In this document: positions 778-62,170 of the stretch, piece after piece | Numbering within the stretch: the first letter of the stretch is position 1 | How the letters are laid out: every line of letters begins with the position of its first letter | Assembly (NCBI GenBank): GCA_043821365.1 | Contig: JBDRCX010000006.1 | Location: 672,001 to 736,000, forward strand | Origin: Candidatus Micrarchaeota archaeon | GTDB lineage: Archaea > Micrarchaeota > Micrarchaeia > Anstonellales > Bilamarchaeaceae | Direction of reading: 5' to 3' | DNA length: 64,000 bases | Made by a program: the position numbers and the translations under genes | Notes under the pieces: generated by a model | Seen by the model: only the letters and a program-made list of their open reading frames with translations | Told to the model about the DNA's origin: nothing | Database searches by the model: none

Positions 778-1617
778 GTGATTAGTGTGGAATTCGATGA
801 AGACTTAGCAGCTATTCATGCTTATTTGTGTGCAGACGGTTATGTTATAAAAAACCCACCCTCCCAGAAACACAAGTATTACCACATTGGTCTTAGAAAT
901 ACTAATTATGTTTTGTTGGAGGATTTTCAAAAAAGATTTTATCGATACTTTGGCATAACTCCCATCATAAAATTTGGGAGAGCGAAGATACAGAATAAAT
1001 TGATATATGAAAAACTGACTGAACGTTATACTTATTATTCTGATAAATGGAATATGCCAAAATTAAATAAGAAATATCTAAGTTATTGGCTCAGGGCATA
1101 TTTTGATTGTGATGGTTGGGTCTACGTTCTTAAGGCTAAGAATAGAAAAATAAGTTTAGATTCGATCAATCACACTGGTCTTTTAGAGATACAAAATTCA
1201 CTCTTCAAAACTTTTCTCATTAAATCTATCATTAAAAAGAGGAAAAATAGACATATTTGGTCATTGTCAATATTCGGTAAAGATAATATTGAGAGATTTG
1301 CTAAAAACATTGGATTTTTGCACCCAAAAAAGAAGAAAAAACTAAATGAAGCCATTCTCTCCTATGTGGATTATAATTGGTTAATCCCAGAAAACAAACC
1401 AGCATTGATCAAGTTTATAAAAACCAGAGGGAGATTGTCTAAAAAAAGAGGGCAGGTTAGATTTAATTCTATTTTAAAAACTAATTTGTCTCGATTTAAA
1501 TCAATTCTTAATAAATTCGGTACCAAATCAATTATATCTAAAAAGTTCTTTAATGGTAATAAAAACGGATACTATACATTATCAATCAAGTTGAATGATA
1601 TAGATAAATGGAGGTAA
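778..1617 (+). CDS. Free-standing LAGLIDADG-family homing endonuclease (intein/WhiA-N-like)
   Basis: Two LAGLIDADG-like motifs, AAIHAYLCADGYV and WLRAYFDCDGWV; very basic; no intein Cys/His-Asn termini. Confidence 0.8.
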   Translation: MISVEFDEDLAAIHAYLCADGYVIKNPPSQKHKYYHIGLRNTNYVLLEDFQKRFYRYFGITPIIKFGRAKIQNKLIYEKLTERYTYYSDKWNMPKLNKKYLSYWLRAYFDCDGWVYVLKAKNRKISLDSINHTGLLEIQNSLFKTFLIKSIIKKRKNRHIWSLSIFGKDNIERFAKNIGFLHPKKKKKLNEAILSYVDYNWLIPENKPALIKFIKTRGRLSKKRGQVRFNSILKTNLSRFKSILNKFGTKSIISKKFFNGNKNGYYTLSIKLNDIDKWR

Positions 1618-1621
1618 CTGA

Positions 1622-4547
1622 ATGGGATTTGGAAAAAATATCAAAAAACCCAATTTCAAAAAAATAAGCGATTACATCTGGGAAATTGGAACCGATTATA
1701 AAGAAGGAATGAAAGTTCCAGCCAGGATATATGCTAGTAAAAATATCCTTGATCAGATGGACATGAACGTCTATGATCAGGTTACAAATGTTGCAACTTT
1801 ACCAGGTATTGTGAACTACGCCTATTGCATGCCCGACGGCCACATTTCTTTTGATTAAAAAGAAAGGCAAATCCGGGTATGGATTTCCAATAGGTGGAGT
1901 TGCTGCCATGGACATTAATGAAAATGGAGTAATTTCACCAGGTGGTATTGGATTCGACATTAATTGTGTCCATCCAGATACTAAAATACTTGCAGAATAT
2001 GGCTATTATAAAAAAATAAAGGATTTTCAAGATGATTTCTCTGAGGAAAGATTATCCTGTATGGATTTGGCAGATAATAAAAAGAAATCTGCAAATCCCA
2101 TACTAACTCTATGCAAAAAAGCAGATTCGCCAGTATTATCTATAAGAACAAAAACTGGTCAAGAAATACTAGTTTCTGCAGATCATCCCTTACTTTCGGA
2201 TAATGGTTTTAAGGAGGCCGGAGATCTAAAAGAAGGTGATAGTTTGCTTATCCATCCCTTTGTTGGTATTGAATATGAGGTTCCAAAAGATTATACAATA
2301 CTAGATGAAAAAGATGTAATCAATCTGGTCGGTAATAGAAAAAAATTAATTGCCAAACTAAAAGCAGAAGGTCTACTACCGCTAAAATCAAATTCAAAAA
2401 ATCTTCCAATTCTTGCAAAATTAGTTGGTTTTATAACTGGAGATGGGTGGGTAGGTTCTTATTATTCTAAAAAAAGAGCAATGGATATCTGGTCAACCAG
2501 AATAATCGGCAAACAGGAGGATTTGGAAAAAATACGGGAGGATCTTTTACAATTGGGGTACGAAACCAATTTTATCCGAACAAACAAATACTCCAGCAAA
2601 GTGAATCTCGAAGATGGAACTGATCGGGCAATAACAGGCGAATCAACACAATTGTATCTTAATTCTCAATCATTAAGTGTACTTCTTCATTTACTCGGAG
2701 TGCCTAAAGGTAATAAATCTAGAACTAAAACATCAATACCAAAATGGGTTAAACATGCACCATTATGGATAAAACGTTTATATCTGGCAGGATTATTTGG
2801 TGCCGAACTTAGTAAACCAGCTCAAAGAAAAAATGAAGAATTCAGCTTCATAGAGCCTAACTTTAGCCAAAATAAGATTGATAGTTTAAAACAGGACAAT
2901 CTTAATTTTATGTTAGATCTAACCAATCTGCTTCTGGATTTTGGGGTGAGAGTGAATAAGATATATGAACAGAAAGGAGTTGTGAATGTTAGGGGTGAGA
3001 GGACCCATAAGCTTGCATTAAGAATTTCTGCCAAACCTGAAAATCTTATTCGATTGTGGGGTACCATAGGTTATGAATATTGCCACGAAAGAACTGTGTG
3101 TTCAATGCTTGCTATTTCTTATTTGAACTATAAGGTTGCTGTTTTAGAAAAAACGGATGTAGAAAATGAGCAATCATCGGGAGCACAAAAAACAATTTCC
3201 CGAATTCGGATTGGTTCGTCATTTCCAACTTTCAAAGAATTTATCGAACAACATATTGTAAAAAATTCCGTATTCATAAAAGATGAAATATCAGACATCA
3301 AATTTTCAAATTATGGTGGATATGTTTACGACTTTACTATGAATGACAAAAACCATAATTTTATTGCAAATAATATCGTGTCTCATAATTGTGGAATGCG
3401 TATCATCCGTACAAACTTAACCTACAAGGATGTCCAGCCAAAATTAAGAGAACTAATTGATAAATTATTCAGAAGTGTACCAGCCGGAGTTGGAAGCAAA
3501 GGGTTTGTGAAATTAGATGCATCAACATTCAGAAAAGTAATTGAAGAAGGATCAGAATGGTGTATAGACCAAGGATATGGTTGGAAAGAAGATTTGGAAG
3601 TAACTGAATTAGGCGGTAGAGAAAAAGATGCAGATAATAGAACTGTAAGCGATAAAGCAGTTCAAAGGGGAAAAGACCAAATCGGTACATTGGGAAGCGG
3701 AAATCATTATCTAGAAATCCAAAGAGTTCTAGAAGAAAACATTATCGACAAGCAATTAGCTAAAAAGTGGGGTATTTTCCCAGATCAGATAGTTGTTATG
3801 TTCCACTGTGGAAGCAGAGGATTTGGTCATCAAGTTGCAACAGATTATCTTAATCTATTCCTAGATGTGATGAATTCAAAATATAAAATAAAAATATTAG
3901 ATAGAGAACTTGCATGTGCACCATTTAATTCTCCAGAAGGTCAGAATTATTTCTCTGGAATGAAATGTGCTATGAATATGAGTTTTGCCAACAGACAAAC
4001 AATTCTACATCAAGTAAGAAAGGTTTTTTCAGATGTATTTGCAACTGATGCTGAAAAACTTGGTTTGCATCAAATATACGACGTTTCACATAATCGCGCG
4101 TCAATTGAAAAACATGATGTTGACGGAACTATGAAAGAATTAATTGTACACAGAAAAGGTGCAACTGCGGCTTTTGGACCAAATAGGCCAGAAGTAACAG
4201 CAAAATACAGAGAGGATGGTCAGCCAGTTATTATTGGCGGTAGTATGGAAACTGGTTCATATTTGCTTGTTGGTGCAGAAACAGGTGCACAAACATGGTT
4301 TACAACTGCTCATGGCTCAGGAAGAACAATGAGCAGAACAGAAGCAAAAAGAAGGTATAGGGGAGACCAATTGCAAAAAGACATGGAACAACATGGTATT
4401 CTAGTGAAAACAAATTCACTGGCAGGACTTGCTGAAGAAGCAGGAGCTGCATACAAAGATATAGATGAAGTTATTGAATCTGCTCATTCTGCAGGTATCT
4501 CTAAAAAAGTTGTTAAGTTAATTCCAATAGCTAACGTGAAGGGCTAA
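1622..4547 (+). CDS. rtcB: RNA-splicing ligase RtcB; proposed join(1622-1843,1872-4547), 965-aa precursor, 490 aa after intein removal
   Basis: 78-aa ORF ends in MPDGH; next frame continues SGYGFPIGGVAA...GFDINC. After the intein: GSGNHYLE, FHCGSRG, VSHN, HRKGAT, AHGSGR, EEAGAAYKD, all RtcB catalytic motifs. Confidence 0.92.
1844..1871 (+). other. Candidate 28-nt BHB-type intron in rtcB mRNA
   Basis: Removal gives in-frame CAC|TCC (His-Ser). Intron stem 1845-1852/1858-1865, central helix GGCC/GGCA, bulges AC|A and AA|U, exon stem 1829-1835/1874-1880. Confidence 0.75.
1965..3389 (+). mobile_element. Intein (475 aa) with LAGLIDADG domain in RtcB
   Basis: Begins CVHPDTKI after GFDIN; block B ILVSADHPLL; LAGLIDADG-like LVGFITGDG and LAGLFGAE; ends VYDFTM...NFIANNIVSHN followed by Cys+1. 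Confidence 0.95.
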
Positions 4548-6634: not shown

Positions 6635-7066
6635 ATGCCTTACAAATTTATAGATGGAGTAACAATGGCTGATATTGCATTCGAAGCAACTGGGAAAAGT
6701 TTAGAAGAATTACTGGAAAGTTCGGGTCAGGCGTTAATGAATACCCAAGTGTCTGATTTGAAAAAAATAAAACCAAAAATAGAAAAAAAAATCGAGATGA
6801 AAAGCCAGAATGAAGAAAGATTGGTTCATGATTTTCTTCAGGAACTGATTTTTCTTAAAGATGCAGAACTTTTACTTGTAAGTAAGTATAAGATGAAAAT
6901 TTACAGAACAGAAGTTGGAATAATACTGAAAGCTGTTCTGAAAGGAGAACCAATCGACAATACAAGGCATGAAATGTTAGTCGATGTGAAGGCAGTTAGT
7001 TGGCACAAATTCGAAGTAAAAAGAGAAAATAAAATGTGGAAAGCATTTGTAATTTTGGATGTCTAA
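6635..7066 (+). CDS. Archease (RtcB activator)
   Basis: ADIAFEA..G.SLEEL N-terminus; DVKAVSWH and ILDV C-terminus. Confidence 0.9.
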   Translation: MPYKFIDGVTMADIAFEATGKSLEELLESSGQALMNTQVSDLKKIKPKIEKKIEMKSQNEERLVHDFLQELIFLKDAELLLVSKYKMKIYRTEVGIILKAVLKGEPIDNTRHEMLVDVKAVSWHKFEVKRENKMWKAFVILDV

Positions 7067-24755: not shown

Positions 24756-24868
24756 GGCCACGATAGTATAATGCCTTGAACGGCATTCAAGATTTGCCTG
24801 CAAGGCATGCAATGGTAGTATAGGGGCTTGTGGAGCCCTAGGCCCGAGTTCGATTCTCGGTCGTGGCC
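24756..24868 (+). tRNA. tRNA-His(GTG) with encoded G-1 and a 41-nt intron (24772-24812) at 15/16
   Basis: G GCCACGA TA GTAT AA|TGGTA GTAT A GGGGC TT GTG GA GCCCT AGGC CCGAG TTCGATT CTCGG TCGTGGC C; BHB helix GUAU/AUGC, bulges AA|U and AA|U, intron stem GCCUUG/CAAGGC. Confidence 0.95.
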
Positions 24869-24952
24869 CTCTTCTTTTTTTGGAAAAAAGAACCAAAAAA
24901 CGTTTTTGTTAAAGGTAAAGCCAAAAACTGGTTGTTAAAAAGAAGCCAAAAA

Positions 24953-62055: not shown

Positions 62056-62170
62056 TGGACACGGAGGGATTTGAACCCCCAGCCTTCCACAGTTTGGCAA
62101 ACTAGTTTTGATCAAACTTTTACTAAAAGTTTGGCGCCAAGCGGATGCTCTACCGTTGAGCTACGTGCCC
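62056..62170 (-). tRNA. tRNA-Ala(GGC) with a 43-nt intron (62134-62092) at 37/38
   Basis: GGGCACG TA GCTC AACGGTA GAGC A TCCGC TT GGC G|T GTGGA AGGCT GGGGG TTCAAAT CCCTC CGTGTCC A; G3.U70 Ala identity; BHB helix UUGG/CCAA. Confidence 0.95.

Follow-up and report, generated by a model that had tools for sequence, protein, structure and literature searches.

Introduction

Among archaeal messenger RNAs (mRNAs), splicing by the tRNA splicing endonuclease (EndA) is known for just two genes, cbf5 of Crenarchaeota, where the intron lies in the coding region, and HVO_1309 of Haloferax, where it lies in the leader (PMC10485636, PMC7714728, PMC2738675), and reviews expect more archaeal mRNA introns to be found (PMC10485636, PMC7714728). 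For cbf5, splicing has been demonstrated by reverse transcription PCR and in vitro (Watanabe 2002; Yokobori 2009, PMC2738675). The epsilon2 EndA of ARMAN-2 cleaves strict as well as relaxed bulge-helix-bulge (BHB) motifs in vitro (PMC3239211), and its Tyr/His/Lys triad, together with an Arg, a Trp and a loop Lys, is needed for catalysis and broad specificity (PMC3488258). Here we describe a 64,000-nt stretch of DNA (hereafter the window) from a Candidatus Micrarchaeota archaeon, in which the gene for the RNA ligase RtcB is interrupted by 28 nt at positions 1844-1871. These very likely constitute a BHB-type intron of the coding region, spliced by EndA and by RtcB itself. Neither an intron in rtcB nor any mRNA intron of Micrarchaeota was found described in the literature within reach, most subscription journals lying outside it.

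Two other systems serve here as points of comparison. In XBP1/HAC1 a protein endonuclease cuts out a short intron, after which a tRNA ligase, in metazoa RtcB, joins the exons. In cyanophages, the free-standing endonuclease F-CphI collaborates with an adjacent group I intron in psbA.

An interruption in the reading frame of rtcB

The window corresponds to G000:C6:672001-736000, G000 being a metagenome-assembled genome of ~1.2 Mb in 6 contigs, 87% complete. All positions below are those of the window unless a contig is named. The interrupted gene is made up of the following parts:

1622-1843, plus strand: rtcB exon 1, 74 codons, MGFGK...YCMPDGH, with the ATG at 1622 and the last codon, CAC, at 1841-1843
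1844-1871, plus strand: putative BHB-type intron, 28 nt, ATTTCTTTTGATTAAAAAGAAAGGCAAA, with an in-frame TAA at 1856-1858
1872-4547, plus strand: rtcB exon 2, SGYGFPIGG...NVKG including the stop, in a different frame from exon 1 and containing an intein

The sequence-only reading that drew attention to this locus held that the RtcB frame breaks after MPDGH and resumes as SGYGFPIGG in another frame, that deleting 28 nt restores the exact spacing of the family, and that the rest of the gene is intact. The sequence, its open reading frames (ORFs) and the Pfam profile of RtcB (PF01139) agree with it on each of these points. Residues 53-74 of exon 1 match profile positions 1-22, its identity to the N-termini of the intact RtcB of relatives being 68-87%, and past the CAC codon its frame runs into the TAA at 1856-1858. 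Exon 2 matches the profile with an E-value of 4.7e-150 up to its end at position 426; the match begins at position 24 with the second residue, so that Ser-1872 takes position 23. Excising exactly 1844-1871 therefore joins positions 22 and 23 with no residue lost or gained, and with intron and intein set aside the two exons cover positions 1-426, a full-length match without further defects. All 27 intronless congeners compared read an unbroken H-S-GYG, the same as G000 once the 28 nt are removed, and the RtcB of G000 is 84-90% identical to the intact RtcB of G024.

A frame that is broken and followed by a stop is also what would be expected of an inactivated gene, in which a small hairpin insertion broke rtcB and left a decaying pseudogene, and metagenome-assembled genomes may indeed carry broken genes, such as the rtcB of G004 with its many frameshifts. 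Here such decay is very improbable. The ratio of nonsynonymous to synonymous substitution rates (dN/dS) between G000 and intronless relatives is 0.04-0.06, equal to that of intronless pairs, and it is 0.062, with a synonymous divergence (dS) of 0.55, between G005 and G028, which both carry the insert. The interrupted rtcB genes are thus under strong purifying selection. Moreover, G000 contains one rtcB copy, although almost every tRNA of this genome depends on ligation, and each insert-bearing genome shows a single rtcB locus; neither a second intact rtcB nor relaxed selection was found in G000, in keeping with the sequence-only reading, which had argued against a pseudogene. Conservation of the insert, finally, far exceeds that of synonymous sites, the insert carries a compensatory change (see below), and its sequence is not repeated elsewhere in the genome. 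BLAST and pattern searches of G000 returned no other copy of the 28-mer, for which reason a high-copy sequence repeat was rejected; the insert may be structurally related to hairpin modules of the genome.

That the insert is an artefact of assembly or sequencing is hardly conceivable. The window comes from a metagenome-assembled genome, and the depth of the one independent contig that covers the insert, X3, is low (2.2); however, this contig, from a separate run and a different sample, spans 1680-1946 and crosses the insert with 0 differences and no gap. Of the other runs, X1 gave nothing at the locus and X2 flanking pieces only. The same site and architecture are found in six assemblies from differing samples and studies, with differences specific to each allele, so the misassembly considered at the outset is contradicted by X3 and by five assemblies besides that of G000.

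Predicted structure of the probable intron

The predicted fold of the interrupted transcript consists of the following elements (arrows mark predicted cuts):

1828-1835, plus strand: 5' strand of the exon-exon (outer) helix, CAUGCCCG, paired with 1874-1881
1839-1841, plus strand: 5' (exon) strand of the central helix, GCC, which pairs with 1866-1868 (3 bp)
1842-1844, plus strand: 5' bulge, canonical 3 nt, AC↓A, with the predicted cut after C1843, the end of exon 1
1845-1865, plus strand: inner hairpin, an 8-bp stem UUUCUUUU/AAAAGAAA with the loop GAUUA at 1853-1857
1866-1873, plus strand: 3' strand of the central helix, GGC, and tail, the loop A AA↓U C, with the predicted cut after A1871
1874-1881, plus strand: 3' strand of the exon-exon helix, CGGGUAUG

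For 1822-1888, RNAfold computes a minimum free energy of -22.5 kcal/mol (z = -3.5); among 200 shuffled sequences, 1 folds equally well. The structure agrees with the BHB fold that had been proposed from the letters of the sequence, and calls for a refinement at its 3' side: the 3' splice site lies within a 3x5 internal loop (1836-1838 and 1869-1873) instead of a clean 3-nt bulge. The outer helix has 8 bp, one of them G-U; a G1838.A1869 mismatch occupies the place where the central helix would have its fourth pair; and the inner stem pairs 1845-1852 with 1858-1865, which places the stop codon at the hairpin loop. With the cut set after the second base of the bulge at the 5' site, and 4+2 nt past the inner stem at the 3' site, the fold predicts cleavage after 1843 and after 1871, i.e. 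exactly at the two junctions that restore the frame. The intron does not have the strict hBHBh' form, with its two 3-nt bulges and 4-bp helix; it has the relaxed one (HBh' or bulge-helix-loop type), with a 5' bulge, a central helix, an inner stem of 8 bp and a second site at a fixed distance. The predicted junction in the spliced mRNA is GACGGCCAC-TCCGGGTAT, and the peptide spanning it would be PDGHSGYGFPIGG.

Relatives, conservation and covariation

The alignment of relatives that had been proposed as a check was carried out on 176 genomes of the order, 166-170 of which gave an rtcB match. Inserts at the same rtcB site are found in 5 of the 176, namely G000, G005 and G028, of one genus, and G134 and G148, of two other genera of the family; a sixth allele, again at this site, is present in one further metagenome contig, and the insert is absent from ~160 rtcB genes of the order. 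The six alleles measure 28, 33, 33, 32, 32 and 34 nt, thus leaving remainders of 1, 0 and 2 when divided by three, and all six bring an in-frame TAA or TGA within 5 codons. The hairpin loops vary among them in length and in sequence, and stems and tail are kept: in the alignment of the six, 97.6% of cells are paired, against 32-54% when the partners are slid. The central helix contains a covarying pair, 1840-1867, which is C-G in three alleles and U-A in the other three, a compensatory change between exon and intron in which the exon partner is the synonymous third base of a Gly codon (GGC/GGT) and the intron partner goes from G to A. The inner stem is identical across alleles save for one change from U-A to U-G. 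Between G005 and G028 the intron differs at 1 of 33 positions, where ~13 differences would be expected from the dS of 0.55 (P ~2e-6 by our own binomial estimate), hence the insert itself is under selection.

The exon-exon helix is complete, with 8 of 8 pairs, in every one of the six intron alleles, which requires the codons TGC, CCC, TCC, GGG and TAT. None of the 27 intronless congeners has the full helix (4 to 7 pairs are found there), and CCC, GGG and TAT are minority codons at those sites among them. This helix may stand in for the tRNA body, holding the halves of the mRNA together between cut and ligation.

The alleles also bear on two explanations in which the RNA is left unspliced. A stable hairpin with a stop just past the break resembles the gap of T4 gene 60, and in the G000 allele GGC occurs both at 1838-1840 and at 1866-1868, features that could be read as translational recoding, by ribosome bypass or by frameshifting. 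This is very improbable, given that insert lengths of 28, 32, 33 and 34 nt demand different shifts and that a hop from GGC to GGC would substitute the conserved His; in three alleles, furthermore, a take-off GGT faces a landing GAC, so the matched codons of programmed bypass are missing there, and the same two changes preserve the base pair of the central helix. The other explanation is a split gene, whose 78-residue N-terminal fragment and C-terminal fragment would be made separately and assemble non-covalently, and in whose favour the G000 allele has a TTG, at 1851, that opens the frame of exon 2. There is equally little to recommend it: in G005, G028 and G148, the stretch of the exon 2 frame from the preceding stop to SGYG contains no start codon, the break falls inside the conserved motif PDGH-S-GYGFPIGG, and the exon-exon pairing and the covariation would have no role.

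In an RtcB tree of 41 rows, the intron alleles fall in four separate lineages, and the starred branches force at least 4 changes. G000 is sister to the intronless G015, and G134 to the intronless G135. Such a distribution fits either one old gain followed by many precise losses, or site-specific spread.

Another insert, of 32 nt, interrupts the rtcB of G039, which belongs to another family of the order (L038:777-808, G039:C70 ~2176-2207), between GGVGY and DINCG. Its fold is near-canonical: the central helix, GGCU/GGCU, has 4 bp and the inner stem 10 bp, the bulges are AU↓A on the 5' side and GA↓G on the 3' side, and the predicted cuts coincide with the frame-restoring junction. This independent intron at another site means that rtcB was invaded at least twice. 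A scan of G000 for frame-restoring BHB introns, using structure and open-frame filters, gave 6111 and then 360 candidates; run without a homology filter, it was dominated by gene boundaries and spurious AT-rich ORFs and is uninformative on other mRNA introns.

Two further rtcB loci of the order deserve mention. The rtcB of G004 (L037, G004:C7:58500-61800), broken into at least 5 frames, was considered as a further intron and rejected, since its frameshifts are numerous and none of its breaks shows a BHB-like insert; assembly indel errors or true pseudogenisation seem to be the cause. At G003:C75:1726-3024 (L041), rtcB matches residues 2-435 only in one frame, there being a second match in G003; a frameshift near the C-terminus or another insert may be the cause.

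Splicing enzymes and tRNA genes

The enzymes that the proposed reaction would need are encoded in the genome. EndA is represented by a 393-residue ORF (G000:C6, L035:1207-2388, minus strand) that aligns over its full length with the epsilon2 EndA of ARMAN-2 (4FZ2, E 3.5e-132) and retains the triad Y236, H251 and K282 as well as R275, W384 and the loop Lys, K161. The genome thus holds a cognate endonuclease of the family that accepts relaxed motifs. The cofactor of RtcB is encoded ~2 kb downstream of rtcB:

6644-7063, plus strand: archease, PF01951, E 2.1e-35 (G000:C6:678644-679063)

A second EndA-like ORF, of 163 residues (L036:1291-1782; G000:C6 ~480404-480895), matches PF01974 with 47.5 bits, its best match in the PDB being the alpha subunit of M. 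jannaschii (E 2e-9). Besides RtcB, an RNA-ligase-family domain, PF09414, is found at G000:C6:603355-603801 (minus strand, L048), in an open frame of 364 residues. Enzymes of this family join 5'-phosphate and 3'-OH ends, not the products of EndA, and the gene possibly encodes a candidate ATP-dependent RNA ligase for RNA circularisation or as a back-up.

Most tRNA genes of G000 are interrupted. ARAGORN without intron search finds 8 tRNA genes in the whole genome and no uninterrupted one in the window; when introns are searched for, the number rises to 19, many of which are interrupted by 100-180 nt. As only 8 are uninterrupted, splicing must be constitutive and essential, and the ligase indispensable. 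The tRNAs of the window had been said to need ligation, and this holds for both Rfam tRNA matches in it, each being interrupted:

62056-62170, minus strand: tRNA-Ala(GGC), Rfam 57.4 bits, with an intron of ~43-46 nt at 37/38
24757-24870, plus strand: tRNA gene, with an Rfam match that covers positions 10-63 only

The tRNA-Ala intron has the ordinary BHB of this genome, with the central helix UUGG/CCAA and the tail CCAAAC↓U, and the register of the rtcB intron matches it: an inner hairpin, a 4-nt strand (CCAA in the tRNA) and then the short tail before the cut (AC↓U). For the tRNA at 24757-24870, a 5' acceptor strand, GGCCACG, lies ~45 nt upstream, which places an intron in its D-arm region.

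Proposed splicing of the rtcB mRNA

Cleavage and ligation of the rtcB mRNA, and any regulatory use of the loop, are what we infer from the features described so far. The precursor, probably co-transcribed with an upstream ORF of the LAGLIDADG type (see below), would fold through the 8 bp between exon 1 and exon 2. Three further base pairs and the G.A would connect exon 1 to the intron's 3' end, and the intron would form its 8-bp hairpin, so that the 5' site is displayed in a canonical 3-nt bulge and the 3' site in a relaxed loop. The epsilon2 EndA, tolerant of relaxed motifs, would then cut after C1843 and A1871, the exon-exon helix keeping the two mRNA halves together, and RtcB with archease would ligate the 2',3'-cyclic phosphate and 5'-OH ends, giving ..GGC CAC↓UCC GGG.., i.e. 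PDGH-S-GYG (the arrow here marking the joint). Unspliced mRNA would yield a 78-residue fragment only, because of the stop codon in the hairpin loop. Ligation by RtcB itself would mean that new ligase is made only where ligase already exists, a self-dependent positive loop.

The central proposal of the sequence-only reading, a relaxed intron of the tRNA type that needs the cell's own EndA and RtcB for its removal, is supported by the six alleles, the covariation, the exon-exon helix, the dN/dS values, the single gene copy and the EndA found here. Its comparison with the feedback of XBP1/HAC1 fares unevenly: the analogy of the chemistry holds, and that of regulation does not, as nothing points to a regulated nuclease and the alleles of 33 nt leave the frame unshifted.

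Several points weigh against a spliced intron. The motif is a relaxed one, its modelled central helix of 3 bp being extended only by the G.A mismatch and its 3' site lying in an internal loop; to be cut there, it would depend on the epsilon2 enzyme being broadly specific, a property demonstrated only with ARMAN-2 tRNA substrates. The conservation of the structure, seen in the covariation and the variable loops, has limited weight: the covariation rests on one pair and is probably one evolutionary event, since the alleles carrying the change group in one part of the tree, so that it is supportive and not overwhelming. Although dS is saturated, compensatory changes are missing from the inner stem, which structure alone does not explain. 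The fold of the intron could be disrupted by coupled translation. The PF09414 gene may offer an alternative route of ligation, so that exclusive ligation of the rtcB mRNA by RtcB is likely and not certain. Finally, no transcriptome runs containing 1622-2100 are listed.

The intein and the neighbouring LAGLIDADG gene

Two further elements are associated with the gene, one within exon 2 and one upstream:

1965-3389, plus strand: intein of 475 residues with a LAGLIDADG domain, inserted between GFDIN and CGMR at the metal-binding Cys of RtcB
778-1617, plus strand: free-standing, two-motif LAGLIDADG homing-endonuclease-like ORF of 279 residues (Pfam LAGLIDADG_3, E 1.8e-22)

The intein is identified by Pfam Intein_splicing (E 3.1e-18) and LAGLIDADG_3, and its boundaries are C...SHN and the following C. 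With an intein and a mini-intron in one gene, rtcB would need both RNA splicing and protein splicing. The site between DIN and C appears widely occupied, as open frames of 930-1000 residues, in which the match is split at residue 96/97, are found for many rtcB genes in the order; in G005, G028 and G148 the intron is present and the intein absent.

The stop of the LAGLIDADG ORF lies 4 nt 5' of the rtcB start, and its 3' end contains the GGAGG that precedes the rtcB ATG. In a tblastn search of the 176 genomes, close orthologues were found in G028 and G148 only (68% and 60% identity), each directly upstream of the intron-bearing rtcB; in the copy of G148, the Trp codon of the second motif is replaced by a TGA. 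G024, which shares its upstream gene with G000, lacks both the LAGLIDADG ORF and the intron, and no such ORF precedes intronless rtcB at any of the 27 loci examined. The endonuclease gene thus occurs with intron alleles and is absent from intronless ones, the linkage expected of collaborative homing. Three intron alleles are without it, and upstream of rtcB in G005, in G134 and at the 34-nt allele no LAGLIDADG remnants were found at E-values up to 10. The LAGLIDADG genes have diverged in step with RtcB (dS saturated), which points to a long-standing association. As far as can be read from the sequences, the pattern fits the life cycle of a homing endonuclease with the intron as its partner.

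One may tentatively go further and regard the mini-intron and the LAGLIDADG gene 225 bp upstream of it as a mobile cassette aimed at the coding sequence of PDGH-SGYGFPIGG, a possible yet rather doubtful view. The endonuclease would cut intronless alleles, and the intron would protect its carrier and be copied in during repair; it would survive solely because the host's tRNA splicing enzymes remove it from the mRNA. Since the loop is a positive one, in which less ligase would mean less spliced ligase mRNA, the rtcB intron is less likely to act as a homeostat than to be a selfish insertion that the cell tolerates.

Implications

The locus would add a coding-region BHB mRNA intron in DPANN, served by an epsilon2 endonuclease, and a bootstrapping dependency in which making the ligase requires the ligase. 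It would provide a natural mRNA substrate on which recognition of relaxed BHB motifs can be studied without a tRNA body, and it gives evidence of codons recruited into an exon-exon helix. The second rtcB intron and the linked homing-endonuclease gene offer a testable route to intron gain and loss. There is also a warning for annotation: in genomes of Micrarchaeota, genes of this kind are mistaken for pseudogenes or for split ORFs. The cassette, if true, would be the first mechanism shown for the spread of BHB introns into or among protein-coding genes, with the ligase gene as the safe harbour of a selfish element and ligase synthesis dependent on ligase.

Comparison with known systems

With psbA and F-CphI, the locus shares a free-standing endonuclease beside a gene whose intron has no endonuclease of its own, both co-occurring and patchy in distribution. 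There, however, the intron is of group I and the setting a phage, whereas here a BHB mini-intron sits in a cellular gene and the endonuclease target is a candidate one. Intron removal in XBP1/HAC1, as in rtcB, alters what ribosomes read downstream, but the nuclease identified here is a constitutive tRNA enzyme and the 33-nt alleles merely lose their stops; neither activation by a signal nor an obligatory frame switch was found, IRE1 itself not having been searched for.

The tRNA introns of ARMAN-2 (Ca. Micrarchaeum acidiphilum) are served by the same epsilon2 family, with its tolerance of motifs with one good bulge (PMC3239211, PMC3488258, PMC12397907), and are laid out alike, the inner hairpin being followed by a 4-nt strand and, ahead of the 3' cut, by an A-rich tail. 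The rtcB intron differs from them in being an mRNA substrate, in which an 8-bp exon-exon helix built from codons replaces the tRNA body. HVO_1309 of Haloferax volcanii (PMC7714728, PMC10485636) is likewise an mRNA substrate of archaeal EndA beyond tRNA and rRNA, but its intron lies in the 5' untranslated region and interrupts no reading frame, the EndA is of the alpha2 type and the BHB is strict.

There is a further resemblance to cbf5, which also has a short coding-region intron with a relaxed BHB at its borders, in a gene for an RNA-processing enzyme, in a lineage whose tRNA splicing endonuclease has broad specificity, and with a patchy distribution by gain and loss. In contrast, cbf5 introns belong to Crenarchaeota with an (alpha-beta)2 EndA, and the rtcB intron to Micrarchaeota (DPANN) with an epsilon2 EndA and a different host gene. 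Splicing in rtcB is predicted from the gene, and its host encodes the very ligase that would complete the reaction, a self-referring circuit. The rtcB intron thus joins the very small known class of cbf5 and HVO_1309, with a host gene that is unusually self-referential.

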